From an uncultured Actinomycetes bacterium (GTDB lineage Bacteria; Actinomycetota; Actinomycetes; S36-B12; CAIYMF01), in assembly GCA_963843975.1 (NCBI GenBank), contig CAWJMG010000003.1, positions 30,001 to 62,000 on the forward strand: a stretch of 32,000 nucleotides of DNA. Direction: 5' to 3'. The notes under the pieces are model-generated. The model had not been told where the DNA came from and made no database searches. It was given only the letters and a program-made list of their open reading frames with translations. Shown in pieces: positions 1 through 26,788 of the stretch; position 1 is the first letter of the stretch; each line of letters opens with the position of its first letter. The translations under genes were made by a program, and so were the position numbers.

Positions 1-1
1 C

Positions 2-106: not shown

Positions 107-118
107 CCGTCCCGAGCG

Positions 119-1249: not shown

Positions 1250-1313
1250 GCGACGACGCTAGCCGACGGAAGCCTGGCGGGGGCAGCACGGAGCGCCCAC
1301 TAGGGTTGACGCC

Positions 1314-2426: not shown

Positions 2427-2430
2427 CGCC

Positions 2431-4128: not shown

Positions 4129-4137
4129 CGCACCCGC

Positions 4138-4500
4138 TCAGCCCTCGGCCAGGAGGCCACGACGGGCGTACGCCGCTGCGGCCTCGCGGACGAGCGCGGC
4201 GTTGCGGACGGCACCCCGCGACTCCAGCGACGCCGCGATCGACTCGAGCTGCGCGGCGGTCGAGCGCCGCGGGCGGAGCGCGTCGTACACCGCGAGCACC
4301 TCGTCGTCCGGCAGGAGAGTGAGCTCGGCCGCGCGACGCAGGTTGGCCGCGAGCTGCGGGTTGGCGTTGGCCTCGGCGACCGTCGCCTGGTGCTCGAGGG
4401 TGTCGGGGTGGATGCGGATGTCGTCGAGCGAGACGAGACCTTCGCGGACGGCGTCGAGAGTGATCTCGCTGCTGTCGCGGCCGGAACGGGCTGCGGTCAT
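4138..4500 (-). CDS. pduE: B12-dependent diol dehydratase small (gamma) subunit, PduE-like
   Basis: 120 codons at the 3' end of the long 4138..5592 ORF. ATG 4500 overlaps the upstream stop (ATGA). DDIRIHPDTLEHQATVAEANANPQLAANLRRAAELTLLPDDEVLAVYDALRPRRST matches the PduE/DhaB3 core. Confidence 0.85.
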   Translation of the reverse strand: MTAARSGRDSSEITLDAVREGLVSLDDIRIHPDTLEHQATVAEANANPQLAANLRRAAELTLLPDDEVLAVYDALRPRRSTAAQLESIAASLESRGAVRNAALVREAAAAYARRGLLAEG

Positions 4501-6737: not shown

Positions 6738-7191
6738 CGAGGGCCTCCTTCGCGTCGTGCTCGGCCTCGTGGCCGGAGAAGACGGCGGCCGCCGCGGCCG
6801 CAGCCGCAGCGTCCTGCGCGGCGGTGCCTCCGCTCACGCCGACACCACCGACCACCCGTCCCCTCGACCAGAGCGGCAGGCCGCCCGCGAAGGCGACGAA
6901 GCGGCCGCCGTCCGCGGCGTACATGCCGACGAGCTCGCCGCCGTCGACCACGAGCGGCCCGAGCTCGGCCGTGGCCGCGCGGTGCGCCACCGAGGTGTAC
7001 GCCTTGTCGCGGGCCAGCGTGGGCCCGGCGATCTCGGCGCCGTCCATGCGCTCGAATGCGACGAGGTGGCCGCCGGCGTCCACCACGGCCACCGACACGA
7101 GCGCGTCGAGCGAGGCCGCCTCGGCGCGGGCGGTCGCGCACATGGCGAGCGCCAGGTCAAGGTCGATCTCGGTGCGGGTCGTGCGGGCCAC
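6730..7191 (-). CDS. GlcG/HbpS/PduO-C-terminal-type (DUF336) heme-binding protein
   Basis: 153-aa ORF. GGLPLWSRGRVVGGVGVSGGTAAQD is the family signature. Its stop overlaps the pduCD start by 8 nt. Confidence 0.8.
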   Translation of the reverse strand: MARTTRTEIDLDLALAMCATARAEAASLDALVSVAVVDAGGHLVAFERMDGAEIAGPTLARDKAYTSVAHRAATAELGPLVVDGGELVGMYAADGGRFVAFAGGLPLWSRGRVVGGVGVSGGTAAQDAAAAAAAAAVFSGHEAEHDAKEALGG

Positions 7192-7215
7192 GGGAGCCTC
7201 CTGGGGGAGAAGGGA

Positions 7216-8233
7216 TCAGCGGGCGAGGGCGCGCAGCGCCGCATGCGTGCCGCGCATCGCGACGGCGCCGGCGAGCACGGACTTCGGCACCTTCGCCACG
7301 ACGGTGTAGTTGGTGTCGACGACGTTCGCCACGGGGGTGAGCGCGGTCTGCGAGACGAGCTGGTAGGCATCGAGCGTCGACTGCCCCGTGCAGCTCGGCG
7401 ACCCAGAGGACCATCTGCTGGTGGGCGATGCGGAACGCGTCCTCGAGCGGCCGCGATGAGCCCGTCGTCATGATGAACGTGTCGTCCTCCATGCGCGGCC
7501 ACGGGGTGGGCATGCCCTTGATGAGGTCGAGGATCACCACGGTGTCCATCGCGCACTCGACTGCGACGCCGCACGTCTCGCCCTCGCCCTGCCGGGCGTG
7601 GCCGTCGCCGAGGCTGAACAGCGCGCCCTCGACGTTCACCCCCAGGTAGCAGGTGGTGCCCGCGCGCATCTCGGGTGTGTCCATGTTGCCGCCCCAGTCG
7701 CCCGGGGTGAGCGAGCTGCGCACCTCGCCGAGCGGGGGAGCGACGCCGACCGTGCCGTGCATCGGGTCGAGGGGGAGATCGGCGGTGAACGTCGTGTCGG
7801 CGGCGCTGTAGCGCACGAGCCGGTCGGTGGCGTCGATCTCGTAGATCCAGGTGCGCTCGAGCAGTGCGGGCTGCAGGCTCGCGGTCTGCGGCGTCGAGGT
7901 CAGCGAGCCGAAGAACGGCACCGTGCTGCTGACCCCCCACGCCTCGCGCGGCTCGATCGAGACGAAGTGCACGGCGAGCGTGTCGCCGGGCTGGGCGCCC
8001 TCGACGTAGAACGGGCCGGTCTGCGGGTTGAGCAGCCGGGGGTCGCACACCTCGCTGGGCAGGTCGGACGTCGAGCGCACGCGGCCGCCGAAGCAGTCGA
8101 AGGTCCAGGTCGACAGGCGGGTGCGCGGTCGCACCGAGGCGACGGGCGCGACGCCGCCGAACGTGTACGTGAGGGCCGTGGGGTCGCCGTCAGGGTCCGG
8201 GGCCCAGAACAGGTCGGTCAGCGAGTCGGTCAC
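7216..8233 (-). pseudogene. Acetamidase/formamidase-family amidohydrolase, reading frame broken by one extra nucleotide near 7384-7390
   Basis: GTG 8233 (SD GGGAGA) opens VTDSLTDLFWAP...GNMDTPEMRAGTTCYLGVNVEGALFSLGDGHARQGEGETCGVAVE (FmdA/AmiF-like). After ...QQMVLWVAEL the ORF-track frame becomes Arg-rich nonsense. The adjacent frame reads (T/H)GQSTLDAYQLVSQTALTPVANVVDTNYTVVAKVPKSVL...ALAR then TGA at 7216-7218. Span is 1018 nt (3n+1). Confidence 0.8.
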
Positions 8234-8278
8234 GGCAGCAGTCTCCCTGTCGGGGCGGGGGTGCGGAGGGCGAACGAA

Positions 8279-8312
8279 GGGGGTGCGCCGCGCATCTGCG
8301 CGACGCACCCCC
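8279..8312 (-). terminator. GC-rich hairpin just downstream of the permease stop (candidate terminator/attenuator)
   Basis: GGGGGTGCGCCGCGCA (8279-8294) pairs with TGCGCGACGCACCCCC (8297-8312), 15 of 16 positions. It lies 16 nt after the permease stop (8328-8330). On the minus-strand RNA it is followed by CUUCGUUCG, a poor U-tract. Confidence 0.45.
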
Positions 8313-8327
8313 TGTCGGTGGTGCGGG

Positions 8328-9941
8328 TCAGACGCGCTCGTGCGCCTCCTCGAGGGTGGTCTGCCCGATCTCCGCGAAGATGTCGGGCTTGGCCTTGCGC
8401 ATCCACAGGGCGTAGCCGAAGCCGAGCACCAGGATTCCGACGATGTACCAGGGCATGAGCTGGAACACCAGGCTGTCCGAGCCCAGACCAGCCGCGAAGG
8501 CCCTGTTCGTCCAGAGCAGGTAGAGCGCGTAGAGCATGCCCGCCGCGCCCACGAGCGGTGCGATGAGCGTGGTGATGACGTTGCCCTTGTGCACCTTCTT
8601 GACCCAGAAGTACGAGATCACGGCGAACGACGTGATCGTCTGGACGAGCAGGATCATGGCGGTGCCGATGACGGCGATGAGGCCATAGACGTTCACGTAG
8701 GGAACGAGCTCCGGCGTCGGGACCATGTTGCCGTCGGCGTCGGGGACGTACACGTTCGTGAACAGGAGGAACGCCACCAGGATCACCGTGGTGATGATCG
8801 TCTGCAGGATGACTGCTGCCGCGGGCGACTGGTGCTTCGGGTTGATGGTGCCGAACGAGTTCCGCATCCAGCTCCACGCACCCTCGCGAGCGAGCGCGTA
8901 GATGTAGCGGGCCGAAGCGTTGCCGAACGCGAGCGCGCAGGCGAAGGAACCGATGACGAGCAGGATCTTGTAGATCGTGGTCATGAAGTCACCCATGTTG
9001 GCGGTGACGAGACCGAGCCACAGGTCGACGGGGTTGGCGCCCGCCGACAGCTCGACGGACTTGGCCGCACCGTTGCCGACAACGACGACCCACGACATGA
9101 GCGTGTAGAAGAGGCCGAGGCCGATGACCGCGATCATGGTCGCCCGCGGGACGTTCTTCTTGGGGTCCTTGGACTCCTCGCCATAGACCGCGGTGGTCTC
9201 GTAGCCGATCCAGGACCAGAAGGCGAAGAAGATGCCGATCGCCGCGGCACCCTGGGCCACGCCAGTGCCGAACGCGCCCTCGTCGAGGGACTTGAATGCG
9301 TTCTGCACCGGCACGATGTCGCTGAACATGAGGCCGTCCGGGCCGCCCTTGGCGAACACGGTCACGGCAAGCCCGAGCAGCAGCAGCACCTCGGCGACGA
9401 GCGTGACGCTGAGGACTCCGGCAGCGACCGTGATGGAGAAGTAGGTCAGGACGCCGATCGCGATCGTGCCGATGATGGCGATGACGATCCAGTTCACGTT
9501 GATGCCGGCGGGGACGAGGATGTAGCTCGTCGCGAAGTACGCGAATCCACCGATGAGGGACGCCTCGAACACGATGTAGGCGACAGCTGCGAGCAGGCCT
9601 GAGGCCATGCCCCAGACCTGGCCGAGCCCCTGGGAGATAAACCCGTAGAAGGCTCCGGCCGTCGTCACGTACTTCGCCATGGCGACGAAGCCGATCGTGA
9701 AGATCGTCAGGACGATGGTGGCGAACAGGTAGCCCGCGGAGGCGCCGATCCCGTTGCCGTAGCCGATGGCGATCGGGACGTTGAAGCTCATCGCGGTGAT
9801 GGGGGCCGCGTTCGCCACCGCCATGAACAGAACGCCGACGAGGCCCACGGCCCCTGCCTTGAGCCGGACCTCCTCCTTCGGGCTGACGTGGTGGTCGCCC
9901 GGGAGTGCGACGGGACCGTCGGGACCGTGTTCGGTCGTCAT
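8328..9941 (-). CDS. APC-superfamily amino acid/amine permease
   Basis: Long hydrophobic multi-segment protein (AVGLVGVLFMAVANAAPITAM..., FFAFWSWIGYETTAVYGEESKDPKKNVPRA). ATG 9941 preceded by AAAGGAA was preferred over the ORF-track start at 10004. Confidence 0.85.
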   Translation of the reverse strand: MTTEHGPDGPVALPGDHHVSPKEEVRLKAGAVGLVGVLFMAVANAAPITAMSFNVPIAIGYGNGIGASAGYLFATIVLTIFTIGFVAMAKYVTTAGAFYGFISQGLGQVWGMASGLLAAVAYIVFEASLIGGFAYFATSYILVPAGINVNWIVIAIIGTIAIGVLTYFSITVAAGVLSVTLVAEVLLLLGLAVTVFAKGGPDGLMFSDIVPVQNAFKSLDEGAFGTGVAQGAAAIGIFFAFWSWIGYETTAVYGEESKDPKKNVPRATMIAVIGLGLFYTLMSWVVVVGNGAAKSVELSAGANPVDLWLGLVTANMGDFMTTIYKILLVIGSFACALAFGNASARYIYALAREGAWSWMRNSFGTINPKHQSPAAAVILQTIITTVILVAFLLFTNVYVPDADGNMVPTPELVPYVNVYGLIAVIGTAMILLVQTITSFAVISYFWVKKVHKGNVITTLIAPLVGAAGMLYALYLLWTNRAFAAGLGSDSLVFQLMPWYIVGILVLGFGYALWMRKAKPDIFAEIGQTTLEEAHERV

Positions 9942-10183
9942 ACTCGGGTGTTCCTTTCGCTGGAGGCGCTGGGGTGCTTGCCGCCTACCGCCGGGCCGGC
10001 CCAAGCCCGGCCCGTGCGTGTTGCGGAGTATTCACTGGACCTTTGGACCGAATCAAGGCCTTGGGGGAACCGTTTACCTCGTCGAAACGGTCACCCGTTC
10101 GGTCCAGGCTCACGCGGGGTTCGGGGAAATCTGCGCGTAACGGTCTGCTGAACCGCCGCCTCGCACCAGCACTGGTGAAGATT

Positions 10184-10216
10184 TGGTCTTGTTTTGGTCT
10201 GGTCTTTCGGTATGCT
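10184..10216 (+). promoter_or_regulatory. Candidate promoter of the BMC operon with three direct TGGTCT repeats (possible GntR/HutC operator)
   Basis: TGGTCT at 10184-10189, 10195-10200 and 10200-10205. TTGTTT (10189-10194), 16 nt, then TATGCT (10211-10216) resembles a sigma-A-type -35/-10. SD GGGAGG lies at 10241-10246 before ATG 10251. Confidence 0.35.
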
Positions 10217-10250
10217 CGTGCACGACGTCGCTGGCTGACCGGGAGGTGCC

Positions 10251-11576
10251 ATGACCGATCACGCCCGGGTCGAGGACGGGGAGACGCCGCTCGACTACGG
10301 CTTCTTCTCGTTCGCCTCCAAGACCGAGGTCCTGGACAAGAGCAAGGAGTTCTGGAACCCGAACAAGACCACCTTCTGGTCCGAGTCGGGCGTCCCGCTG
10401 GTCATCGACCGGCGCGAGGACTACTTCATCTACGACGTCACCGGCAAGCGCCTCATCGACGTCCACCTCAACGGCGGCACCTACAACCTCGGGCACCGCA
10501 ACCCCGAGATGGTGCAGGCCATCACCGTGGCCATGCAGCATTTCGACATCGGCAACCACCACTTCCCCTCCCTCGCGCGCACGGCCCTCGCCGAGGCGCT
10601 GATCGCGAGCGCGCCGAAACACATGTCGAAGGTCGTCTACGCCTCGGGCGGGGGGGAGGCCATCGACATCGCCCTCAAGACAGCGCGCCACACGACCCAG
10701 AAGCGCAAGATCGTGTCCATCGTCCGCGCGTTCCACGGGCACACGGGCCTGGCGGTCGGAGCCGGCGACGACCGGTTCTCCAAGCTGTTCCTGTCGGACC
10801 AGCCTGAGGACTTCCCGCACGTGCCCTTCAACGACCTCGAGGCGATGGAGGAGGCGCTGCGTGGGCGCGACGTGGCTGGCGTCATCCTGGAGACGATTCC
10901 CGCCACCTACGGCTTCCCGCTCCCCGACCCCGGCTACCTCGAGGGTGTGAAGCGCCTCTGCGAGAAGTACGACGCCCTCTACATCGCCGACGAGGTGCAG
11001 ACCGGCCTCATGCGCACCGGTGAGTTGTGGGGCATCACCAAGCACGGCATCGAGCCTGACATCCTGGTGACGGGCAAGGGCATCTCGGGCGGCATGTACC
11101 CCATCGCGGCGGTGCTCGTGAGCGAGCGCGCCTCCGGCTGGCTCGACGAGGACGGCTTCGGCCACATCTCGACCTTCGGCGGTGCCGAGCTCGGCTGCAT
11201 CGCCGCGCTCAAGGCGCTCGAGATCTGCAACCGCGCCGAGACCCGCTCGATGGTCCACTACATCGCGGACTTCATCGGCCGGGGCCTGCGCGACATCCAG
11301 GCCACCTACCCCGACTGGTTCGTCGGCATCCGCCAGAACGGCGTGGTGATGGGCCTGGAGTTCGCCCGCCCGCAGGGCGCCAAGGCCGTGATGAAGCGCC
11401 TGTACGAGAACGGCGTCTGGGCGATCTTCTCCACCCTCGACCCGCGGGTGCTGCAGTACAAGCCCGGAATCCTCCTCAAGCCCGAGGTGGCCGAGGAGCT
11501 GCTCGACCGCACCGAGGTCGGCATCGCCCTGGCCCGCGAGGACGTCCTGGGCGCTGGCAAGAAGGCGTGGCGCTGA
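10251..11576 (+). CDS. Class-III aminotransferase-fold PLP enzyme; candidate 1-amino-2-propanol O-phosphate phospho-lyase of the RMM pathway
   Basis: 441-aa ORF. ADEVQTGLMRTG and VTGKGISGG (PLP lysine) are class-III aminotransferase motifs. It is the first gene of the RMM-type operon, where this fold is assigned the phospho-lyase role in M. smegmatis. Confidence 0.8.
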   Translation: MTDHARVEDGETPLDYGFFSFASKTEVLDKSKEFWNPNKTTFWSESGVPLVIDRREDYFIYDVTGKRLIDVHLNGGTYNLGHRNPEMVQAITVAMQHFDIGNHHFPSLARTALAEALIASAPKHMSKVVYASGGGEAIDIALKTARHTTQKRKIVSIVRAFHGHTGLAVGAGDDRFSKLFLSDQPEDFPHVPFNDLEAMEEALRGRDVAGVILETIPATYGFPLPDPGYLEGVKRLCEKYDALYIADEVQTGLMRTGELWGITKHGIEPDILVTGKGISGGMYPIAAVLVSERASGWLDEDGFGHISTFGGAELGCIAALKALEICNRAETRSMVHYIADFIGRGLRDIQATYPDWFVGIRQNGVVMGLEFARPQGAKAVMKRLYENGVWAIFSTLDPRVLQYKPGILLKPEVAEELLDRTEVGIALAREDVLGAGKKAWR

Positions 11577-13142
11577 TGGTCGAGACCATGTTTGAGATGC
11601 CGCTCGACCCCGCCGGCGTGCCGCGCGGGCGGGCCATGATCGAGCGAGCCGAGTGGGCCGCGCGCGCGTTCGCGTCGTACGACGCCGCCACCGTGCAGCG
11701 GATCGTCGACGCTGCCGCCGCCGCGGGTGCCGCGCACGCCAAGGAGCTCGCCGAGGCGGCCGTGCGCGAGACGGGCTTCGGCGTGGCCGAGCACAAGGTG
11801 CTCAAGAACCTCGCCTGCTCGCGCGGCATCGCCGAGCTCTACAGGGCCGCCGACTACGTCGACGTCGTGGTCGACGCCGACGCGAAGATCGTCTCGGTGC
11901 CGCGGCCGGCCGGCGTGGTGCTCGCGCTGACGCCGTCGACGAACCCTGTCGCCACCGTGTACTTCAAGACCCTGCTCGCGCTGCTCACGCGCAACGCCGT
12001 CGTGATCTGCCCGCACCCCTACGCCAAGGAGGTGTGCGCCAAGGCCGCTCGCATCATGGCCGAGGCGGCGGTGGCGGCGGGCGCTCCCGACGGCTGCATC
12101 CAGGTCGTCGACGAGCCGTCGATCCCGCTGGTCAACGCGCTCATGACCGACCCTCGCACCGACGTCATCGTGGCGACGGGCGGCTCGGCGATGGTGCGCT
12201 CGGCTTACCGCAGCGGCAACCCCGCGATCGGCGTCGGGCCGGGCAACGTGCCGGTGCTCGTCGACGCCTCGGCCGACCTCGCGGCGGCGGCCAAGCGGAT
12301 CGTCGACAGCAAGGCGTTCGACAACTCGATCCTGTGCACCAACGAGAGCGTGCTGGTCGTCGAGAAGTCGGTGGCCAAGCAGCGTGTCCCAGCTCGAGCG
12401 CGCGGGCGCCCACCTGCTCGCGCCCGACGAGCGCGACCGGGTGCGCGACCTGATCTTCCCGGGCGGCCGGTTCGACACCGCGTGGGTGGGCAAGGACGCG
12501 ACGGACATCGCGAAGGCGGCCGGCGTGCGCGTCGGCGCGCGCACGCGGATCCTGCTCGCGCCGTTCGACCTCGTCGTGCCGGAGGAGCCGCTCGCGCACG
12601 AGAAGCTCTGCCCGGTGCTCGGCATGGTGGTCGTCGAGACCGCCGCCCGCGGCATCGACGCCGCGCGCGCCGTCCTGCGCATCACCGGCGAGGGCCACTC
12701 GGCCGCGATCCACAGCACGGATGCGCGCACGATCATGGAGTTCTCGGCCGCGGTCCGCGTCCTGCGGGTGTCGGTCAACGTCGGCAACAGCCTCGGCAGC
12801 TCCGGCATCGAGACCAACCTCGCGCCGTCGATGACGATCGGCACCGGCTTCTTCGGCCGCTCGTCGGTGGGGGAGAACCTCGAGCCCAAGCACCTCGTCA
12901 ACTGGACCCGCCTGGCCTGGAACGCCGACTCCTCGGTGCGCATGCCCGACGTCGCAGCGATCTCGCCGTGGCACGCGCCCGACGGCGCCGTCCCGGCGTA
13001 CCCGCGCGCGTCGAACGACGGCGGCGCACCGCTGGTGCCCTCGCCCACGGCTGAGGTCGCGGTCGAGGGTGCGCCCGACAGCCTGCGCGACGAGATCCGC
13101 CGGCTCATCATCGAAGAGCTCAACGCGATCGTGCGGGGCTGA
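11576..13142 (+). pseudogene. CoA-acylating aldehyde dehydrogenase (EutE/PduP-like), frame broken by one extra nucleotide near 12380-12386
   Basis: ATG 11576 overlaps the upstream stop (TGATG). The N-terminal part (11567..13054 ORF) stays sensible up to ...AFDNSILCTNESVLVVEKSVAKQ (catalytic Cys), then turns Arg-rich. The next frame (12384..13142) continues VSQLERAGAHLL...EKLCPVLGMVVVE...GEGHSAAIHS...MTIGTGFFG. Span is 1567 nt (3n+1). Confidence 0.85.
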
Positions 13143-13145
13143 CCC

Positions 13146-13748
13146 GTGGCCGAGCTCCGCTCCTTCATCTTCCTCGACCGGCTGCAGCCGCAGACCATGA
13201 GCTACATGGGCTCGACCGTCAAGGGAGCCCTGCCGCGCGCCGACATGGCCTCGCTGATCATCGAGGTGGCGCCGGGCCTGGACATCGAGCCGCTCACCGA
13301 CGTCGCCCTGAAGTACGCCGAGGTGCAGGCCGGGATCCTGGTGGTGGAGCGGCAGTACGGCTACCTCGAGGTGCACGGCCCGACCGGCCAGGTGAAGGCC
13401 GCCGGCGAGGCGGTGCTCGACTCGCTCGGCGCCGACCCGGACCAGGCCACGAAGCCGCAGGTGCTCGCCTCACGCATCGTGACGATGCTCGACCGCCAGC
13501 ACGCATTCCTCATCAACCGCAACAAGGCCGGCTCGATGGCGCTGCCGGGCGAGTCGCTGTTCGTGCTCGAGATGGCGCCGGCGTCGTACGCGATCCTCGC
13601 GACCAACGAGGCCGAGAAGGCCGCGGCCATCAAGGTCGTGGACTTCCGCATGATCGGTGCGACGGGCCGCGTGTACCTCTCCGGCAAGGAGAGCGACGTC
13701 CGTCAGGCGGCCGAGGCCGCCGAGGCCGCCCTGGGGAGAAGCCGATGA
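13146..13748 (+). CDS. BMC shell protein, double-domain (BMC-T class), paralog 1
   Basis: 200 aa. Co-linear with the 14775..15425 product (LIIEVAPGL.IE, GIL.VERQ.G.LEVH, INRN...SM.LPG.SL.V.EM.PA, NEAEK, MIGA.GRVY). Size and position match the tandem-domain RMM shell proteins. Confidence 0.75.
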   Translation: MAELRSFIFLDRLQPQTMSYMGSTVKGALPRADMASLIIEVAPGLDIEPLTDVALKYAEVQAGILVVERQYGYLEVHGPTGQVKAAGEAVLDSLGADPDQATKPQVLASRIVTMLDRQHAFLINRNKAGSMALPGESLFVLEMAPASYAILATNEAEKAAAIKVVDFRMIGATGRVYLSGKESDVRQAAEAAEAALGRSR

Positions 13749-14188
13749 GCACCGGCCTCGGCGACTCCGAGCGCGACCTGCTGCGCCAGATGGTGCGCCA
13801 GGTCCTGCAGGAGGTCGTGCCGGAGACGATGGCTGCGGCCTCGGCGTCAGGCGGCGCGTCCGACGAGACCGTCGTGCTGACCAACGACGCCGAGCTGGAG
13901 GCGTTCGTGCGCCGCGTCGCCGTGCTCTGCGAGGACCCCGCCGAGCGCGAGGCGCTGCGCAGCGGGAGCCGCCGCTTCCACCTGGCCGGGCACCCGACGA
14001 CGTCGGCGGCTGCTCCCGCCTCCGCAGCCGCGGTGGTCCGGGTCGACAAGGGGGCCGTCACCGAGCGGCACGTGCGCGAGGCGGCGTCCCAGGGCGCCGA
14101 CCTCGTCCTGGGACGCGGCGCCGTCCTGACTCCGCTCGCGCGCGACCGCGCGCGGGCTGCGGGCGTCCGGATCACGAAGGAGAAGTGA
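13745..14188 (+). CDS. Hypothetical BMC-locus protein (amphipathic N-terminal helix, Ala/Ser linker, ~50-aa C-terminal domain)
   Basis: 147 aa; ATGA overlap upstream and TGATG overlap downstream. N-terminus is SERDLLRQMVRQVLQEVV. C-terminus is VVRVDKGAVTERHVREAASQGADLVLGRGAVLTPLARDRARAAGVRI. It occupies the slot of the uncharacterised gene between shell genes in RMM loci. Confidence 0.7.
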   Translation: MSTGLGDSERDLLRQMVRQVLQEVVPETMAAASASGGASDETVVLTNDAELEAFVRRVAVLCEDPAEREALRSGSRRFHLAGHPTTSAAAPASAAAVVRVDKGAVTERHVREAASQGADLVLGRGAVLTPLARDRARAAGVRITKEK

Positions 14189-14778
14189 TGCTGCGCGGAC
14201 GGGTGATCGGGAACGTGTGGGCCAGCCGGAGGCTGGACGAGATCCCTTCAGGCGCGTTCCTGGAGGTGCAGGTCGAGGGTGGCGCGACGCTCATCGCGTT
14301 CGACGTCCTCGGCAGCGGGATCGGGGAGGCCGTGCTCGTGTCCACGGGGTCGGTCGCGGCCTCGTGGTTCCCGGGCGACGCACCGCCGATCGACGCGCTC
14401 ATCATCGGCTCGATCGACGAGAAGCCGGGCAGCGCAGCTCCCGGACCACAGCCCCGCGCCGCACGCCGGCGCGGTCAACGAGGAGGAACACGCATGTCGA
14501 ACAACGCGATCGGTCTCATCGAGACCAAGGGGTACGTCGCTGCACTCGCCGCCGCCGACGCGATGGTGAAGGCCGCGAACGTCGTGATCGTCAGCAAGGA
14601 CACCGTGGGCGACGGCCTGGTGGCCGTGACCATCGTCGGCGACGTCGGCGCGGTCAAGGCTGCGACCGAGGCCGGTGCCGAGACGGCGTCGTCGGTCGGA
14701 GAGCTCGTCTCCGTGCACGTCATCCCGCGTCCGCACGCCGAGCTCAGCAAGCACTTCACGGTCAGCGGCGACGCGTGA
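14188..14778 (+). CDS. Continuous ORF: BMC-P (EutN/CcmL pentamer) domain, 21-aa linker, then BMC-H domain
   Basis: MLRGRVIGNVWASRRLDEIPSGAFLEVQVEGGATLIAFDVLGSGIGEAVLVSTGS...IDALIIGSID is EutN/CcmL-like (aa 1-81). There is no stop before TGA 14776-14778. Confidence 0.85.
   Translation: MLRGRVIGNVWASRRLDEIPSGAFLEVQVEGGATLIAFDVLGSGIGEAVLVSTGSVAASWFPGDAPPIDALIIGSIDEKPGSAAPGPQPRAARRRGQRGGTRMSNNAIGLIETKGYVAALAAADAMVKAANVVIVSKDTVGDGLVAVTIVGDVGAVKAATEAGAETASSVGELVSVHVIPRPHAELSKHFTVSGDA
14494..14778 (+). CDS. BMC-H hexameric shell protein (PduA/EutM-like), from an internal start
   Basis: MSNNAIGLIETKGYVAALAAADAMVKAANV...GDVGAVKAATEAG...GELVSVHVIPRPH is canonical Pfam00936-type sequence. It has its own SD, GAGGAGGAA (14480-14488), before ATG 14494. 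Confidence 0.95.
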   Translation: MSNNAIGLIETKGYVAALAAADAMVKAANVVIVSKDTVGDGLVAVTIVGDVGAVKAATEAGAETASSVGELVSVHVIPRPHAELSKHFTVSGDA

Positions 14779-15425
14779 GCGCGGCCCCGATCGCGGGGCC
14801 GGAGCTGCGTGTCTACCTGCTGATCGAGGATCTGCAGCAGCAGTTCGCGGCGTATCTCGGTACGCCGACACGAGCACGCGGCTACCCGCCGTACGCCGGG
14901 CAGCACGCGCTCATCATCGAGGTCGCACCCGGCCTCGCCATCGAGCGCGTGACGCACCAGGCGCTGACGTCGGTGCCCGACATCGAGCCGGGCATCCTCT
15001 TCGTCGAGCGTCAGTTCGGCGTGCTCGAGGTGCACGCGTCGTCGCTCGACGACGTGCTGCGCGCAGGCGAGGCGATCCTCGACGGGCTCGGCGCGGAACC
15101 GGCCCACCAGCTGGCCCCGCGCGTGCTGTACCACGACGTCATCGAGCACGTCACGGACATGCACGCCGTCATCATCAACCGCAACCGGCAGGCCTCGATG
15201 CTGCTGCCGGGGCAGTCGCTGCTGGTCTACGAGATGACCCCTGCGCTGTTCGCCGCCGTCGCGGCGAACGAGGCCGAGAAGGTGGCGCCGGAGAACACGC
15301 TCGTCGACGTGCAGATGATCGGCGCCGCCGGCCGCGTCTACATCGGCGGCACGACCGAGGGCGTCACGAAGGCGCGCGACGCGATCACGAAGGTCCTCGA
15401 CTCGATCGAGGGCCGTCGGCACTAA
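14775..15425 (+). CDS. BMC shell protein, double-domain (BMC-T class), paralog 2
   Basis: 216 aa. GTG 14775 overlaps the BMC-H stop (GTGA). Co-linear with the 13146..13748 product. Ends in TAA, which directly abuts the tandem repeat. Confidence 0.75.
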   Translation: MSAAPIAGPELRVYLLIEDLQQQFAAYLGTPTRARGYPPYAGQHALIIEVAPGLAIERVTHQALTSVPDIEPGILFVERQFGVLEVHASSLDDVLRAGEAILDGLGAEPAHQLAPRVLYHDVIEHVTDMHAVIINRNRQASMLLPGQSLLVYEMTPALFAAVAANEAEKVAPENTLVDVQMIGAAGRVYIGGTTEGVTKARDAITKVLDSIEGRRH

Positions 15426-15533
15426 GTTCCAGCAAGCACGGGTTCCAGCAAGCACGGGTTCCAGCAAGCACGGGTTCCAGCAAGCACGGGTTCCAGCAAG
15501 CACGGGTTCCAGCAAGCACGGGTTCCAGCACGG
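15426..15533. repeat. Perfect tandem repeat: 6 copies of the 16-mer GTTCCAGCAAGCACGG plus one 12-nt copy lacking AGCA
   Basis: Units start at 15426, 15442, 15458, 15474, 15490 and 15506, all identical. A seventh copy, GTTCCAGCACGG, spans 15522-15533. The array is intergenic between BMC-T2 and the kinase. Confidence 0.97.
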
Positions 15534-15566
15534 CACGTCCCTGTCGTACGACTCGTAGGGAGAACG

Positions 15567-16548
15567 GTGAGTTCCGAGCTCGACACCGACCACCTCGAGG
15601 TCTTCGCGCGCGGCGCGGTGGCCGAGCACGGCATGCCGGACGCCGAGATCACGCTGCTGAACGTGTCGGAGAACGCGACGTTCCGTGCCGACTCCGCCGA
15701 CGGCCGTCGGCTGGTGCTCCGGGTGCACCGCACCGGCTACCACTCGCGCGAGGCGATCGAGAGCGAGCTGGCTTGGATCTCGGCGCTGCGCGCGGACGGG
15801 ATCGTGCACACGGCCCCCGTGATCCCCACCCCTGACGGCCGCGACATCGTCGCGGTGCGCCACCCGGGCGGCGAGGAGCGGCAGGTCGTCGCGTTCGAGT
15901 GGATGAACGGGCACGAGCCGCCCGAGGACCGTCTCGTCGACGACTTCCGCGAGCTCGGTGCCATCACCGCACGCCTGCACCGGCACGCGCGCGAGTGGCA
16001 GCGCCCGGCCGGTTTCACCCGGTTCCGTTGGGACTTCGACACCTCGCTCGGTGCGAACGGGCACTGGGGCCGTTGGCAGGACGGGCTCGGCATGGGACCG
16101 TCCGAGCTCGAGGTGCTCGGTCGTGCGGCCGACGCCGTGCAGCGCCGGCTCGCCGCGTTCGGCGCCGGGCCCGACCGCTTCGGCCTCGTCCACGCCGACA
16201 TGCGCCTCGCCAACCTCCTCGTCGACGGTGACAGCGTCTGCGTGATCGACTTCGACGACTGCGGCCTGTCCTGGTACCTCTACGACCTCGGGTCGTCGCT
16301 GTCGTTCATCGAGCACCTGCCGGTCGTGCCCGAGCTGCATCGACTCGTGGATCACCGGCTACCGCACCGAGGGCACGCTGAGCGCCGAGGAGGTCGCCGA
16401 GCTCCCGACCTTCGTGATGCTGCGCCGCCTGCTGCTCGTCGCGTGGATCGGCTCGCACTCCGCCGTCCCGGAGGCTCAGGCCCTCGGCGCCGACTTCACC
16501 ACCGTGTCCTGCGACCTCGCGGAGAAGTACCTCGTCCAGTTCGGCTGA
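15567..16548 (+). pseudogene. APH-family (phosphotransferase) amino-alcohol kinase, RMM-type; frame broken by one extra nucleotide near 16335-16340
   Basis: GTG 15567 (SD GGGAGAA). Sensible sequence runs to ...VIDFDDCGLSWYLYDLGSSLSFIEHLPVVPEL and then becomes nonsense. The next frame reads IDSWITGYRTEGTLSAEEVAELPTFVMLRRLLLVAWIGSHSAVPEAQALGADFTTVSCDLAEKYLVQFG, stop 16546-16548. That stretch is co-linear with the intact paralog at 20532..21533. Span is 982 nt (3n+1). Confidence 0.85.
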
Positions 16549-16564
16549 CCTGCCCGGAGGATCC

Positions 16565-17354
16565 ATGTTCAGCTCCATCGCCGGCCGCTCCGTCATCGTG
16601 ACGGGTGGCACCAAGGGCATCGGCAAGGGCATCGCGCGCGTGTTCGCGCGGGCTGGCGCCAACGTCCTCATCACCGGGCGCAACGAGGCGGACGCCGCCG
16701 CCTGCGCAGCCGAGCTCACCGGGCTCGGTGGCGGCGAGGTCACGTACGTCCTCGGCGACGTCGCGTCGGCCGAGTCGTGCGCGGCGATGGCCGCGACCGC
16801 GGTCGAGCGCAACGGCGGCATCGACGTGCTCTGCGCCAACGCCGGGATCTTCCCCGACTCCAAGCTTCGCGACGATGACCGAGGCCGACATGGACCTCGT
16901 CTTCGGCACCAACATCAAGGGCACGCTGCTGTCGGTGCAGGCGTGCATGCCGGCGCTCACGGCGTCGGGCCGCGGGCGCGTCATCCTCACCTCGTCGATC
17001 ACCGGGCCGATCACCGGCTACCCGGGCTGGTCGCACTACGGCGCGAGCAAGGCCGCACAGCTGGGCTTCATGCGTACGGCGGCCATCGAGCTCGCGCCGC
17101 GCAAGATCACCGTGAACGCAGTGCTCCCGGGCAACGTCGCGACCGAGGGCCTGGCCGAGCTCGGCCCGGAGTACCGCGCGTCGATGGAGGCGAGCATCCC
17201 GTTGAGGGCGCTGGGCGAGGTCGACGACATCGGCAACGCCGCCCTGTTCTTCGCCACCGACGAGGCGGCGTACATCACCGGGCAGGCGCTCGCGGTCGAC
17301 GGCGGCCAGGTGCTGCCCGAGTCGCTCGCGGCGCTCGAGGCCGCAGCCGACTAG
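16565..17354 (+). pseudogene. Short-chain dehydrogenase/reductase (RMM aminopropanol dehydrogenase position); frame broken by one extra nucleotide near 16865-16869
   Basis: [11 protein letters not shown]...[10 protein letters not shown] is followed by nonsense. The next frame (tail of ORF 16605..17354) reads [18 protein letters not shown]...YGASKAA...[10 protein letters not shown]. Span is 790 nt (3n+1). Confidence 0.85.
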
Positions 17355-17396
17355 ACGACGTACCGTGGTCGCACCGACACCGCACCGGGGGGTGAG

Positions 17397-18194
17397 ATGA
17401 CCGAGACCGACGCCCTCCTGGGGCCGACGGCCGATGAGGCGCGGCGCAACATCGTCGGCCTCATCACCTCCGGCGCGCTGCGACCAGGTCAGCGCCTCGG
17501 CGCCGAGCGTGATCTCGCCGTGCAGCTCGGCGTCAGCCGGTCGACCCTGCGCGCCGCCCTGGCCTCGCTCGAGCAGGACGGCCTCGTTCGTCGCGTCCCC
17601 GGCCGCGGCGGCGGCACGTTCGTCGCGCGGGAGAAGATCGACCGCGACCTCTCGCGCATCGTCGGCGTGCCCGCGCTCCTGCGCGACCAGGGCTACACCG
17701 CCGGCACCCGCGTCGTGAGCGGTGCGGTCGCGCCCCCCGATCCGGATGCGCGCGCGGCGCTCGAGATGGACGACGACTCGTTCGTCGTCGACCTCGTGCG
17801 CATCCGCCTCGCCGACGGAAGCCCCATCTCGCTCGAGCACGCGCGCCTGCCTGCCGAGCGCTTCCCCGGTCTGCTCGAGCGCCCGCTCGGCGGCTCGCTG
17901 TACCAGCTGCTCGAGAAGGAGTACGGCGTCGGCCCGCACCAGGCCGTGGAGAGGCTCGAGGTCGTGTCGGCATCCGACGACGAGGCACGCGTCCTCGGCG
18001 TCCCGTCCGGCTCGCCCCTGATCTCGATCACGCGCACGACCACCGACTCCGACGGCCGGCCGTTCGAGTACTCGCACGACCTGTTCCGCGCGGACCGCAC
18101 CCGCATCACCGTGCGCACGTACGGAGCACCGGCGGGCGCGGGGATGGACGCGACCCGCGGCCGTCTCGTCGAGGTCCGCGACAACACCGCCTGA
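17397..18194 (+). CDS. GntR-family regulator, HutC-like (winged HTH plus UTRA-type effector domain)
   Basis: 265 aa. ERDLAVQLGVSRSTLRAALASLEQDGLVRRVPGRGGGTFV is a GntR wHTH. The C-terminal half resembles UTRA domains (...PISLEHARLP...YSHDLFRADR). Confidence 0.8.
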   Translation: MTETDALLGPTADEARRNIVGLITSGALRPGQRLGAERDLAVQLGVSRSTLRAALASLEQDGLVRRVPGRGGGTFVAREKIDRDLSRIVGVPALLRDQGYTAGTRVVSGAVAPPDPDARAALEMDDDSFVVDLVRIRLADGSPISLEHARLPAERFPGLLERPLGGSLYQLLEKEYGVGPHQAVERLEVVSASDDEARVLGVPSGSPLISITRTTTDSDGRPFEYSHDLFRADRTRITVRTYGAPAGAGMDATRGRLVEVRDNTA

Positions 18195-18207
18195 CCGGAG
18201 GGTCGTC

Positions 18208-18543
18208 ATGCCGTACGACGAGGTGCTCGCCGACCGCATCCGCGCGCTGCTCGAGACACGCGTTGACGTCGCGGAGAAGAAGATGTTCGGCGGCCTGGCG
18301 TTCCTCGTCGGCGGGCACATGGCTATCGCGGCCAGCGGCGAGGGCGGCGCGCTGGTGCGGGTCGATCCCGCGGAGTCCGACCAGCTGGTCGACACCGATG
18401 GCGCCGAGGTCGCGGTGATGCGCGGCCGGCCCATGACGGGGTGGCTACGGGTGGCCGACGAGCAGCTCGAGTCCGACGACGTGCTTGCGGCGTGGGTGCA
18501 GCGGTCGTCGGCGTACGCCGCGTCGCTGCCACCGAAGGGCTAG
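18208..18543 (+). CDS. TfoX N-terminal-domain protein
   Basis: 111 aa. KKMFGGLAFLVGGHMAIA...MRGRPMTGWLRV is typical of the TfoX_N family. Confidence 0.7.
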   Translation: MPYDEVLADRIRALLETRVDVAEKKMFGGLAFLVGGHMAIAASGEGGALVRVDPAESDQLVDTDGAEVAVMRGRPMTGWLRVADEQLESDDVLAAWVQRSSAYAASLPPKG

Positions 18544-18550
18544 CGGCCGA

Positions 18551-19015
18551 TCAGCCCTGGGCGGTCGGGATGGCGTCGGCGACGGCCGGGGAGATGTCGA
18601 CCAGTGCGTCGGCCTCGGGGGAGTACGCGTCCGGCACGCTGACCTCGATGTTGAGCTCGCGCCCTACCGTGGTGAAGAGGTAGCCGTTCTCGAGCTGCTC
18701 GGGCAGCCAGTCGATGCCGTCGACGGTGACGAGCTGCGAGGTGGGCCCGAGCGCGGCCGGAGTGGGCACGCCGCAGCGGACGACGATCGCGGGGTCTCCC
18801 CAGGCCGACACGAACGAGCTCCTCGGATCGGTGGCCGTCACGGTCTGGCCGACGACCTCGTCCGGGAGGCTGCTCTTGAAGTTCGCGCACGCGTAGGCGC
18901 CCGCCCCCTCGGGGAGCGGGTCGGGCAGGGGTACGGCGAGGCCGCGGGAGCAGCCGGTGAGCGAGAGCAGGACCGCCGCGGCAGCGAGTGCGCTGCCGAC
19001 GTGCCGCCTGCCCAC
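18551..19015 (-). CDS. DUF3515-like secreted lipoprotein
   Basis: Only the 3' 155 codons of ORF 18551..20029 look coding. GTG 19015 opens VGRRHVGSALAAAAVLLSLTGCS (signal peptide plus lipobox), followed by SAWGDPAIVVRCGVPTP...VDGIDW. Sits in the conserved position near thiL. Confidence 0.7.
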   Translation of the reverse strand: MGRRHVGSALAAAAVLLSLTGCSRGLAVPLPDPLPEGAGAYACANFKSSLPDEVVGQTVTATDPRSSFVSAWGDPAIVVRCGVPTPAALGPTSQLVTVDGIDWLPEQLENGYLFTTVGRELNIEVSVPDAYSPEADALVDISPAVADAIPTAQG

Positions 19016-19023
19016 AGCCGGTG

Positions 19024-19260
19024 TCAGAGGTGGACGACGGGGCAGGTGAGGGTACGCGTGATGCCCTCGACCGCCTGGATGCGTGCCACCACGAGCTTGC
19101 CGAGCTCGTCGACGCTGCGCGCCTCGGCGCGCACGATGACGTCGTACGGGCCGGTGACGTCCTCGGCCTGCGTGACGCCCTTGATCTGGGCGATCTCGGC
19201 GGCCACGTGAGCCGCCTTGCCGACCTCGGTCTGGATGAGGATGTAGGCCTGCACCACCAT
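19024..19260 (-). CDS. Small Lrp/AsnC ligand-binding-domain protein (about 78 aa)
   Basis: MVVQAYILIQTEVGKAAHVAAEIAQIKGVTQAEDVTGPYDVIVRAEARSVDELGKLVVARIQAVEGITRTLTCPVV. ATG 19260 was chosen inside the longer 19024..19365 ORF. Confidence 0.8.
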   Translation of the reverse strand: MVVQAYILIQTEVGKAAHVAAEIAQIKGVTQAEDVTGPYDVIVRAEARSVDELGKLVVARIQAVEGITRTLTCPVVHL

Positions 19261-19433
19261 GGTCGTCCTCCTCGGTCGGAATCTGGTGCGGTCGGGGAAG
19301 CGCAACCAGGTCGAGCAGCCCCGTTGAAGTGCGGCCCGGTGTCCGGTAGGACCGCAGGACGACACTATCGCCCGGATGGTGCGGGCGGAGAACGGGTACG
19401 GGACGCTCCCGCCCCGACGTGAAGGAGAACACA

Positions 19434-20405
19434 GTGCCGAACGGTCCCGTCGGTGGCGGCGGCTCGGTGTCCGACCTGGGCGAGTTCGGGCTGATCGGTG
19501 CGATCGTCGGCCGATTCCCGGTCACCGACGACGTCCTCCTCGGGCCCGGGGACGACGCGGCCGTCGTCGCGGCGCCGGACGCCCGGGTGGTCGCCACGAC
19601 CGACCTCCTGGTGGAGGGACGGCACTTCCGCCGCGACTGGTCCTCGGCGCATGAGATCGGGCGCAAGGCCGCGGCGCAGAACCTCGCGGACGTGATCGCG
19701 ATGGGCGCACGTCCGACGGCCCTGCTCGTCGGGCTCGGCTGCCCGCCGGACCTGCCCACCGCCTGGGCTACGGGCCTCGCGGACGGCCTCGCGGAGGAGT
19801 GCGCCCTCGTGGGGGCCACGGTCGTCGGGGGCGATGTCGTGCGCAGCGACATGGTCGTCCTGGCGGTCACGGCCCTCGGCGACCTCGAGGGCCGCGCGCC
19901 GGTCACGCGGTCCGGGGCGCGGCCCGGCGACGTGCTGGCGGTCGCGGGCCGGCTGGGGTGGTCGGCGGCCGGCCTTGCGGTGCTCGGCCGGGGGTTCCGC
20001 TCACCGCGCGTTCTCGTCGAGGCGCACAAGGTGCCGACCCCGCCCTACGCCGCGGGCCGTGCGGCCGCGGTCGCGGGTGCGACGTCGATGATCGACGTGT
20101 CCGACGGGCTGCTGCAGGACGCCGGCCATGTGGCCGCGGCCTCCGGCGTCGTCCTCGGCATCGACTCGGCAGCGCTGGTCGTCGACCAGCCGCTGGCGGA
20201 TGCGGCCGCGGCGTTCAACGCCGACCCGCTGCAGTGGGTCCTGCGCGGCGGCGAGGACCACGCACTGCTGGCGACGTTCCCGCGGGGGGCAGTGCTTCCG
20301 GAGGGCTTCACGGCGATCGGCCGCGTCGACACCGGGGACGCCGGGGTGCTCGTCGACGGGGAGCCGCCCACTGGTGCCGGCGGCCACGACCACTTCCGCT
20401 CCTGA
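19434..20405 (+). CDS. thiL: Thiamine-monophosphate kinase
   Basis: DLGEFGLI, GPGDDAAVV, TTDLLVEGRHF and AQNLADVIAMGARP are ThiL/AIR-synthase-fold motifs. GTG 19434 follows AAGGAG (19422-19427); the ORF-track start at 19419 is also possible. Confidence 0.9.
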   Translation: MPNGPVGGGGSVSDLGEFGLIGAIVGRFPVTDDVLLGPGDDAAVVAAPDARVVATTDLLVEGRHFRRDWSSAHEIGRKAAAQNLADVIAMGARPTALLVGLGCPPDLPTAWATGLADGLAEECALVGATVVGGDVVRSDMVVLAVTALGDLEGRAPVTRSGARPGDVLAVAGRLGWSAAGLAVLGRGFRSPRVLVEAHKVPTPPYAAGRAAAVAGATSMIDVSDGLLQDAGHVAAASGVVLGIDSAALVVDQPLADAAAAFNADPLQWVLRGGEDHALLATFPRGAVLPEGFTAIGRVDTGDAGVLVDGEPPTGAGGHDHFRS

Positions 20406-20411
20406 CACGAG

Positions 20412-20465
20412 CTACTGCCCACAGGCGCGCGGACGAGCGTCCTTGAACCTGGATCGGGGCAGTAG
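20412..20465. terminator. Inverted repeat between convergent thiL and kinase genes (weak bidirectional terminator candidate)
   Basis: CTACTGCCC (20412-20420) pairs with GGGCAGTAG (20457-20465), a 9-bp stem. The 36-nt loop is long for an intrinsic terminator. Confidence 0.25.
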
Positions 20466-20531
20466 TTCGAGTTCCCAGGTGAGGTGGTAGGTGGCACCAG
20501 GGACGCTCGCGAGGTCGCGGACCGCTCGACC

Positions 20532-21533
20532 TCAGGCCAGGTAGGTGCCGCTCAGGTAGGACTCCGCGAGCTCGCACGTCTCGGTCGTGAACGGCGCGCC
20601 GAGCTCGCGCGCCTCCTCGGCGTACGAGTGGTGGGAGCCCACCCATCCCACGAGGAGGAGCCGTCGGAACATCACGAGCGTGGGGATGATCCCGACGTCC
20701 GTCGAGGTGAGAGGGCGCAGGGTCTGGTAGCCGGCGAGCCACGGCTGCATCCAGTCGCTGGCGCGGGGGTCGGCCTCCAGGAAGCTGACCGCGGTCGCGA
20801 AGTCGTACAGGAACCACGAGAAGCCGCAGTCGTCGAAGTCGATGACCTTCACCTGGTCACCGTCCACGAGCAGGTTCGTCAGTCGCAGGTCGTTGTGGGC
20901 GAGCCCGAACCGGGCGGGGTCGGTGCCGTACGCCGCCAGCTCGCGGCGGATCTGGTCGTCCACCCGCTGCAGGAGCCGGCGCTCGTCGGCACCCATCCCG
21001 AGCCCGTCCTGCCAGCGACCCCACATGGCCCGGGCGCCCAGCGCGGCGTCGTAGTCGCACGTGTACCTGGTGAAGGTCGAGGGCCGTGCCCAGGCACCAC
21101 CGTGCAGGTGCATGGCTGCGGCGAGCCGGCCGAGGACCTCGAAGCTGGCCTCCAGCCCGCTCTCGGTGCTGGGTGCCGCGCCGTCCATCCAGTCGAAGAG
21201 GACGACGTGGCGGCTGTCGCCGTCCCCGACAGGCAGCGTGGTGAGCCGGCCGCCGTCGCGCCGGCGGATCGCGGTCGGGGGATCGACGACGCCGTCAGCG
21301 CTGAGCGCGTCGAGCCAGAGCAGCTCGGACTCGATCTCCCGGCCGGAGTGGTATCCGGGGCGGTGCACACGCATGGCGGCGACGCGACCGCTGTCGGGAT
21401 CGACCACCTTGTACGTGGTGTTCTCGGACACGTTGATCAACGTGACGTCCGACCGAGGAGACAGCTCGTAGTGCTCCAGCACCGAGCGAGCCACTGAGTC
21501 GAGCGAGGTGATCATGACCTCGGCGCCGTCCAT
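20532..21533 (-). CDS. APH-family (phosphotransferase) kinase, intact paralog of the RMM kinase
   Basis: ATG 21533 (SD GGAGGGGG) opens MDGAEVMITSLD... It shares VSEN.T..., RVHR.GYHS..EIESEL.W..AL, GRWQDGLGMG and NLLVDGD.V.VIDFDDCG.SW.LYD with 15567..16548. Confidence 0.85.
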   Translation of the reverse strand: MDGAEVMITSLDSVARSVLEHYELSPRSDVTLINVSENTTYKVVDPDSGRVAAMRVHRPGYHSGREIESELLWLDALSADGVVDPPTAIRRRDGGRLTTLPVGDGDSRHVVLFDWMDGAAPSTESGLEASFEVLGRLAAAMHLHGGAWARPSTFTRYTCDYDAALGARAMWGRWQDGLGMGADERRLLQRVDDQIRRELAAYGTDPARFGLAHNDLRLTNLLVDGDQVKVIDFDDCGFSWFLYDFATAVSFLEADPRASDWMQPWLAGYQTLRPLTSTDVGIIPTLVMFRRLLLVGWVGSHHSYAEEARELGAPFTTETCELAESYLSGTYLA

Positions 21534-21591
21534 GCTCCCCCTCCGGTCCGCTCGACCACGTGACGTCGTGGCCGTCCTGCTGCGCTGTGGC

Positions 21592-21701
21592 CAAAGGCAC
21601 AAGGACCAAACCATAAGTGACGACGGAGGGAGAGACAAGGTCCGACCGTGTGGTGGCAGTCCTTGCCCGCGGGCACTTACGGGCCTAGGTTTAGACCATT
21701 A
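21592..21701. promoter_or_regulatory. Back-to-back divergent promoter module A (homologous to 27668..27778)
   Basis: Rightward: TTGCCC (21663-21668), 17 nt, TAGGTT (21686-21691), then TAGACCATTA. Leftward, on the minus strand: TTGTCT (21633-21638), 17 nt, TATGGT (21610-21615). Confidence 0.5.
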
Positions 21702-21754
21702 ATCTGCCGGTGGGGCTCGCCTCCACCATCCGTACCCGAGGAAGGGCGGCACCT

Positions 21755-22153
21755 GTGGCCTCGAGCAACACGGACGTCGAGTTCGTCCCACCGAGCGGCT
21801 TCCTCGCCAAGGCTCCCCTGAGCGCCGCCGTGCGGGTGGGCGATCTGGTGCTGGTGTCGGGCCAGATCGGCATCGACGACGCCGGCGTCGCGCTGCGGGG
21901 CATGGCCGAGCAGACGAAGGCCTGCATCGAGGCCGTGGCGGCCGCACTGGCGCCCGTGGGCGGCAGCCTCGCGGACGTGGTCCAGACGCGGGTGTACCTC
22001 ACCGACTTCAGCGGCTACGACGACTACAACCGGGTGTACCGCGAGTACTTCGCCGAGCCCTTCCCGGCCCGTGCCACGGTGGGCACGCCGCAACTCGCTC
22101 TGGGCGCCCAGATCGAGATCGAGGCTGTCGCCGTCCTGCGCCGGGCCGACTGA
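21755..22153 (+). CDS. ridA: RidA/YjgF-family reactive enamine/imine deaminase
   Basis: 132 aa from GTG 21755 (SD GAGGAAGGG). VLVSGQIG...VYLTDFSGYDDYNRVYREYF...PARATVG...GAQIEIEAVAV is typical of RidA. Confidence 0.85.
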   Translation: MASSNTDVEFVPPSGFLAKAPLSAAVRVGDLVLVSGQIGIDDAGVALRGMAEQTKACIEAVAAALAPVGGSLADVVQTRVYLTDFSGYDDYNRVYREYFAEPFPARATVGTPQLALGAQIEIEAVAVLRRAD

Positions 22154-22211
22154 GCCGACTGCCCACGCCTGGCGCTGATCGCTGCAGCCACGTCCGATCG
22201 AAGGAGCACCG

Positions 22212-24556: not shown

Positions 24557-24586
24557 GCGCTCCGCGACGACGAACGGATCGAGACC

Positions 24587-25294: not shown

Positions 25295-25347
25295 CGGCCG
25301 CAGTCCGTGTCCTAGTGGTCGGAGCGGTGCCGCCTGGCACGGCTGCT

Positions 25348-26730: not shown

Positions 26731-26788
26731 GGGCTCTCCTCGGGGCTGGTCTGGTGCAGCTGCTCGTCCTCCACGTCGTCTGGCCGGC

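Follow-up and report, generated by a model that had tools for sequence, protein, structure and literature searches.

The pentamer (BMC-P) and hexamer (BMC-H) shell-protein genes that are deposited as one uninterrupted reading frame in the 32,000-nt stretch of DNA analysed here, which we call the window, are very probably two separate genes whose apparent fusion is an artefact of the deposited consensus. The true locus would consist of an 82-codon pentamer gene ending in GGC AGC TAG, a non-coding spacer of 59 nt and a 94-codon hexamer gene, and a motif-linked read or consensus error at AGCT, in an assembly probably made from long reads and with the motif probably methylated, would have dropped the TA of the TAG stop codon. 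The deletion of these two bases, its restriction to the window, its association with AGCT and the presence of TAG in the otherwise identical contig L097 are matters of direct observation.

As deposited, the locus is a single 196-codon ORF that runs on the forward strand from ATG at 14188 to TGA at 14776-14778, and both translation of the window and Pfam bear out the full EutN/CcmL and BMC-H domains that the initial annotation had described in it: EutN_CcmL (PF03319) matches aa 1-77 over profile 1-83/83 and scores 61 bits, where 25 would suffice, and BMC (PF00936) matches aa 107-182 with 84.9 bits (profile 1-75/75). The BMC-P gene of 82 codons (14188-14433) thus has a full-length profile match above the gathering score, and as deposited it does not encode a stand-alone protein of about 80-100 aa, there being no stop after codon 82, where TAG is expected after 14433 and its TA is absent. 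The BMC-H gene of 94 codons plus TGA (14494-14778) encodes a full-length single PF00936 domain and has its own ATG at 14494 and its own ribosome-binding site, the Shine-Dalgarno sequence GAGGAGGAA at 14480-14488, 5 nt upstream of that ATG, which is present as previously reported. Between the two lies the former intergenic spacer (14434-14493), which aligns base for base with its homologue in relatives, a non-coding spacer, and is read here as the linker AAPGPQPRAARRRGQRGGTR, giving the junction peptide ...IDEKPGSAAPGPQPR. This bridge is open, as had been claimed, and its length is 20 codons rather than the 21 first counted, because AGC at 14431-14433 (Ser) is the genuine last pentamer codon, the pentamer proteins of relatives ending in ...EKPGS*. 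If the sequence is taken as deposited, ribosomes that start at 14188 would run through the former spacer into the hexamer gene and make a 196-aa chimera, and the hexamer protein would still be produced from its own ribosome-binding site. An AF2 model of the 196-aa product predicts two separately folded domains (pLDDT about 90, pTM 0.46) joined by disordered bridge residues 85-104 (pLDDT below 50), a prediction that is compatible with any explanation of the fused ORF and is not decisive.

The openness of the bridge is in itself unremarkable, since the window has about 72% G+C and 80% of all 20-codon stretches in it are free of stops. Both remaining forward frames are likewise open over 14431-14493, as was noted earlier, being spanned by ORFs 14217..15425 and 14279..14569, and without the stop, read-through is what one would expect here.

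The site at which the stop was lost is apparent when the junction is aligned with those of L088/L092, L089, L090, L091, L009, L008 and L001. The pentamer gene ends in GGC AGC TAG in all relatives, i.e., in seven contigs with 89-96% nucleotide identity to the window and in 77 species-representative genomes. The stop is present in L088/L092, L089, L090 and L091 at 95-96% nucleotide identity (measured over 4 kb for L088/L092 and L089), and it is kept in the isolate genome of the nearest named organism, Longivirga aurantiaca (Sporichthyaceae; L008, 92% nucleotide identity), in the MAG L009 (89% identity) and in L001. Where L088/L092 and L089 read GAG AAG CCG GGC AGC TAG CAGCTCCCG..., the window reads GAG AAG CCG GGC AGC GCA GCT CCC G..., and the missing TA is the sole difference at the junction between the closest relatives and the window (14433..14434; GGCAGC-TA-GCAGCT in the relatives, which includes an AGCT site). 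The distance from the T of TAG to the hexamer ATG is 62 nt in the relatives and 60 nt, or 20 codons, in the window, so that one 2-bp deletion both removes the stop and puts the spacer into the hexamer frame. The earlier argument against a simple indel as the cause of the read-through is thus overturned, and the stop was not lost at CAG 14449, CAA 14476 or CGA 14479, as had been suggested, all of these being unchanged spacer bases in the relatives. The same CAA had been read as a hint of a recent stop loss or a base-call error; that suspicion stands, and the codon argument behind it does not, as CAA is spacer DNA and not a point mutation. The initial annotation had itself pointed to close relatives as the place to look for a stop in the linker, and TAG is found at the start of the "linker" in all of them and in L097.

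Comparisons at the protein level and across species lead in the same direction. L092 and L097 each encode a stand-alone pentamer protein of 82 aa that agrees with the one in the window at every residue (100% identity over 82 aa), and the 94-aa hexamer protein of the window occurs identically on four metagenome contigs, each with a separate upstream 82-aa pentamer gene. With the pentamer domain as query, 971 homologues were found, and each of the best 120 (70-90% identity) is a protein of 78-128 aa that stands alone. When one genome was scanned for each species, 80 loci were obtained, 77 of them with a recognisable downstream hexamer gene, and none of the 77 has a fusion of the two genes. The hexamer gene lies in the pentamer frame at 28 of these loci and in the other two frames at 49, which argues that the spacer is under no frame constraint; at 19 species loci one stop alone separates the two genes. 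The spacer of close relatives, 51-70 nt long, is non-coding and carries a stem-loop together with the Shine-Dalgarno sequence of the hexamer gene. The bridge in the window is without a coding signature as well, its G+C content by codon position being 0.90/0.90/0.48, whereas the pentamer domain has 0.68/0.51/0.94 and the hexamer gene 0.68/0.46/0.93, i.e., a third-position value (GC3) of 0.48 against 0.93-0.94 in the flanking genes.

The most direct comparison is with L097, a 1469-nt Logan assembly contig from the public run ERR12037365, which covers window 13277-14744 and has no substitution relative to it over all 1469 nt. On this contig we read GGCAGCTAGCAGCT, with TAG present, and the pentamer (82 aa) and hexamer genes are called as separate genes. 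Only two indels distinguish L097 from the window, namely the TA at the junction and one C, at window position 14706, that is absent from L097 at a GAGCT[C]G site 38 nt from that contig's own end. We infer that L097 is sequence of the same strain, independently assembled, and that it originated from the same sample. In the protein collection, the 2.76-Mb source contig, for which five neighbouring proteins match exactly, has neither the 196-aa product nor the 94-aa hexamer protein on record.

The TA loss is one of at least six short indels that are private to the window and located at AGCT sites, five of which, the TA loss included, disrupt coding; the sites are mostly GAGCTC or CAGCTC. In the contexts that follow, brackets enclose the inserted or deleted bases. 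On the reverse strand, the insertion of a C in [C]AGCTC at 7391 frameshifts the formamidase gene (7219-8233), in which tblastn, at 98% identity, changes from frame -2 (aa 1-283) to frame -3 (aa 282-338). The other coding disruptions are on the forward strand. A 2-bp deletion in CAGC[TC]G at 12383 frameshifts the aldehyde dehydrogenase gene (11567-13142), which tblastn follows in frame +2 over aa 1-271 and in frame +3 over aa 271-522 (98-99% identity), and Pfam coverage of this gene ends at profile position 286/461 in the window as compared to 427/461 in the intact L092. The insertion of a G in GAGCT[G]C at 16337 breaks the gene for the APH phosphotransferase (15567-16548), with tblastn matches to aa 1-257 in frame +3 and to aa 255-326 in frame +1, and that of a T in AAGC[T]TC at 16866 breaks the short-chain dehydrogenase (SDR) gene (16565-17354), whose adh_short match is split between profile 3-91 in one frame and 89-192 in another, a division that tblastn reproduces. 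Both halves of all four genes have 74-99% amino-acid identity to intact homologues by tblastn, and the four frame-breaking indels are absent from all relatives compared. The pentamer stop codon is lost in the context CAGC[TA]G at 14434, and an intergenic indel at 7197, GAG[C]CTC, has the same AGCT-linked context. Six of eight short indels thus fall within AGCT +/- 1 nt, a zone that makes up 2.5% of the sequence (binomial P = 6e-9).

This pattern points to a motif-linked read or consensus error. Systematic errors of this kind at methylated motifs, affecting only some occurrences of the motif, have been described for nanopore consensus sequences (PMC6591954, PMC12392509). We infer that the source assembly was made from long reads and that AGCT is methylated in the organism; a single contig of 2.76 Mb and differences that are indels only fit this. 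Some features count against an artefact, in that the indels of the window are mostly outside homopolymers. Deletions of 2 bp are not the commonest long-read error, which counts against it as well. A uniform motif error also fits poorly, because the indels cluster between 7.2 and 16.9 kb, where about 6 of 42 AGCT sites are affected, and the 91 other AGCT sites of the window are intact, no frameshift having been detected at any of these by GC3 phase plot and Pfam coverage. The AGCT-linked indels fall in about 10 kb (window 7197-16866), as opposed to the flanks (1-7000 and 17001-32000), and 18 flanking genes have full-length Pfam matches. Mixed-strain pile-ups, low coverage or partial polishing are possible reasons for such regional clustering. 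The reading frames at 21710-22153 and 22212-23243 were considered as one frameshifted gene and rejected as such; they are two separate genes.

The explanation that survives best beside an artefact, and which we nonetheless consider unlikely, is that the strain, or a sub-population of it, truly carries the TA deletion and the four frameshifts as mutations, in which case its aminoacetone/aminopropanol (RMM2-type) operon would be decaying. The fused ORF would then be one of several inactivating lesions, making the 196-aa chimera along with hexamer protein from its own ribosome-binding site, and the bias towards AGCT could have arisen if a restriction enzyme specific for AGCT cut the DNA and the breaks were then repaired by imprecise end joining. 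The frameshifts are limited to RMM-specific genes at 7.2-16.9 kb, whereas the Ddl, ThiL, GlnA-like and diol dehydratase genes look intact, and five indels per about 10 kb would fit a short period of relaxed selection, given the 1-5% amino-acid divergence from L092; the gene halves beyond the frameshifts could fit very recent real mutations as well. Decay should, however, also have left substitutions, indels of 3n length and indels away from AGCT, and there are 0 substitutions between L097 and the window, while the shell genes and the regulator are still perfect. Moreover, TAG is present in L097, an independent assembly that is otherwise identical, and the indel that L097 itself has at another GAGCTC site suits read noise better than it suits two haplotypes. 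Operon-wide pseudogenisation, weakened by L097 and by the AGCT bias, was for these reasons demoted to a minor rival. It is more improbable still that some cells of the population truly lack the TA, make the chimera next to free hexamer subunits and build it into their shells, so that each vertex subunit is tethered to one subunit of an adjacent hexamer. If this were true, no natural shell protein with a covalent vertex-facet link would have preceded it, accidental though its origin might be in an operon that is otherwise breaking down.

An evolved and selected fusion, in which a flexible linker of 20 residues would covalently connect a pentamer subunit with one subunit of a neighbouring hexamer, and co-expression with free hexamer subunits would serve to anchor the vertices, has in our estimation next to no chance of being correct. 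Both domains are intact, and AF2 folds each of them apart with a disordered bridge; Strep-II-tagged pentamers are known to cap shells still, with the tag accessible from the outside (PMC6056538); and a search of public data with the full 196-aa query listed 29 proteins that have both Pfam domains. Yet the fused state is private to the window and the stop is present in relatives at 89-100% identity, L097 among them, so that the initial annotation's proposal of a covalent pentamer-hexamer fusion as a new class of shell protein is not upheld. Neither conservation nor a coding linker, as would be looked for in a natural class of fusions, is in evidence: 0 of 77 species loci are fused, the frame relation of the two genes is unconstrained, the nearest homologues are stand-alone proteins, and the bridge is former spacer DNA with a GC3 of 0.48, homologous to a structured non-coding spacer that includes a Shine-Dalgarno sequence.

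At least 9 of the 29 fused proteins contain, by alignment, frameshifted stretches or read-through into the next gene. Four fused loci were inspected, and three of these (L093, L095 and L096) have other broken genes, including those for aldehyde dehydrogenase, SDR, aminotransferase, dehydratase subunits and GntR, only L094 looking otherwise intact. The proteins P0001-P0010, which have in common a pentamer domain beginning with MLTATV... and a variable in-frame linker, were considered as a conserved clade of fusions and rejected as such. Fused ORFs are most frequent in this clade, and each of the 120 pentamer proteins nearest to it (88-96% identity) is a stand-alone protein of 90-139 aa. The spacer is variable in length, rich in G/C homopolymers and found in all three frames; the tight overlap of the pentamer and hexamer genes there means that a single indel is enough to create a fused ORF. 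The 29 fused ORFs are sporadic, and they provide no evidence for a conserved pentamer-hexamer fusion anywhere. The normal state of the pentamer ORF in this actinobacterial clade, as at the species-representative loci L055, L056, L062, L067, L078 and L083, is to have a long, variable and homopolymer-rich tail that extends through the whole spacer, including the Shine-Dalgarno sequence of the hexamer gene, and stops 8-11 nt inside the hexamer gene in another frame. In P0015 and P0018, the ORFs continue from the hexamer gene into BMC-Tdp to give chimeras of 295-338 aa, a further sign that read-through ORFs are common in high-G+C loci.

Programmed read-through or frameshifting was rejected, there being no remaining stop and no slippery repeat in the window, and the relatives terminate.

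The spacer that has been read as a linker holds a small but real lead of its own. A G+C-rich stem-loop of 8 bp, CCGCGCCG-CACGC-CGGCGCGG, is predicted by MFE folding at 14454..14474 (forward strand), and stem-loops of this type, G+C-rich, with 6-8 bp and 5-12 nt upstream of the hexamer Shine-Dalgarno sequence, are observed in L001, L008, L009, L089-L092 and most of L010-L087. At the Shine-Dalgarno sequence, the block GAGGAGGAACA shows no variation between the window and its six close relatives L088-L091, L009 and L008. For the stem-loop, RNAalifold finds 7 pairs in the spacer with one compensatory change, in L008. Over 56 species loci the mean z for the spacer stem-loop is -2.08 as compared to -0.45 for a control segment (P = 1e-5), and in most of these loci it is kept in position and not in sequence. 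A scan of the window against Rfam gave no family at the gathering score. The stem-loop is not an intrinsic terminator, because no U-run follows the hairpin; it may act in the processing or stability of the mRNA and so help to set the ratio of pentamer to hexamer protein, and it may bear on the very unequal amounts in which these two proteins are made from such operons.

The biology of the microcompartment is little affected by these conclusions, as the RMM2-type operon in the window is an ordinary one, in which vertex and facet proteins have genes of their own. On the forward strand, Pfam matches and the gene assignments based on them identify a class-III aminotransferase (10251-11576), the aldehyde dehydrogenase (11567-13142), BMC-T (13146-13748), a conserved 147-aa protein (13745-14188), the pentamer-hexamer ORF (14188-14778), BMC-Tdp (14775-15425), the APH phosphotransferase (from 15567), the short-chain dehydrogenase (16565-17354) and a GntR regulator (17397-18194). 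On the reverse strand are an amino-acid permease (8328-10004), the formamidase (7219-8233), an HbpS-like protein (6730-7191) and diol dehydratase with its reactivase (2431-6737), the latter made up of Dehydratase_LU+MU (4497-6737), the dehydratase SU (within 4138-5592) and DDR (2431-4128). The RMM2 core genes are thus all found here (aminotransferase, aldehyde dehydrogenase, APH, SDR, GntR, permease and BMC-H/-P/-T), with those for aldehyde dehydrogenase, APH and SDR frameshifted, and so are the opposite-strand diol dehydratase homologues with reactivase that set RMM2 apart from RMM1 (PMC4207490); both content and layout agree with the published description of RMM2 (PMC4207490).

Several other features of this locus can be recorded. 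The protein encoded between BMC-T and the pentamer gene (13745-14188, forward strand), 138-176 aa long across loci and without a Pfam match, is present in every RMM locus examined (L004, L006, L092 and L093-L095), and in the window the stop of its gene overlaps the pentamer start (TGATG). Between the BMC-Tdp and APH genes, at 15426-15530, there is a perfect 16-nt tandem repeat, GTTCCAGCAAGCACGG, in 6.6 copies, with about three fewer copies in the 96%-identical contigs L088 and L089. The large and medium subunits of diol dehydratase form one 746-aa ORF (4497-6737, reverse strand), and the same fusion occurs in L093 and L094 (758 and 763 aa). Only L095 and L096, both loci with many frameshifts, have it split, and among these Actinomycetota the fusion seems to be conserved and genuine.

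More broadly, the locus is a reminder that most frames are open in high-G+C DNA, so that a single indel in a stop codon can mimic a convincing "domain fusion", and about 30 pentamer-hexamer chimeras are already present in public protein databases. The AGCT indel pattern also casts doubt on this assembly as a whole and flags it, and probably others from the same project, as one to be checked before frameshifts, pseudogenes or fusions in it are interpreted.

Among known systems, the nearest are the canonical actinobacterial RMM1 and RMM2 loci with separate pentamer and hexamer genes (Axen 2014, PMC4207490; Sutter 2021, PMC8217296). The window shares with the RMM relatives L006, L092 and L089 the order aminotransferase, aldehyde dehydrogenase, BMC-T, 147-aa protein, pentamer, hexamer, BMC-Tdp, APH, SDR and GntR, with the permease and diol dehydratase on the other strand as in these relatives, and its pentamer and hexamer proteins are 100% identical to those of L092; it differs from canonical RMM loci only in the two missing bases of the pentamer stop and in the frameshifts of four enzyme genes. 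As in the spurious fused or split ORFs known to result from indel errors in long-read assemblies, motif-linked (methylation) consensus errors included, short indels at some copies of one tetranucleotide have here produced frameshifts and a read-through fusion, and other database loci with fused pentamer-hexamer ORFs show the same syndrome. The differences are that the errors are regionally clustered in the window and that a long-read platform and AGCT methylation are presumed for it. Shell-protein catalogues contain P, H and T classes only, and BMC-T (tandem pfam00936) is their sole fused class, resembling the ORF in the window in that two shell-protein domains are covalently joined. In BMC-T, a class with conservation across phyla, the fused domains are alike and form a pseudohexamer, whereas the ORF in the window joins unlike domains of 5-fold and 6-fold symmetry through former intergenic DNA, and does so in a single sequence only.
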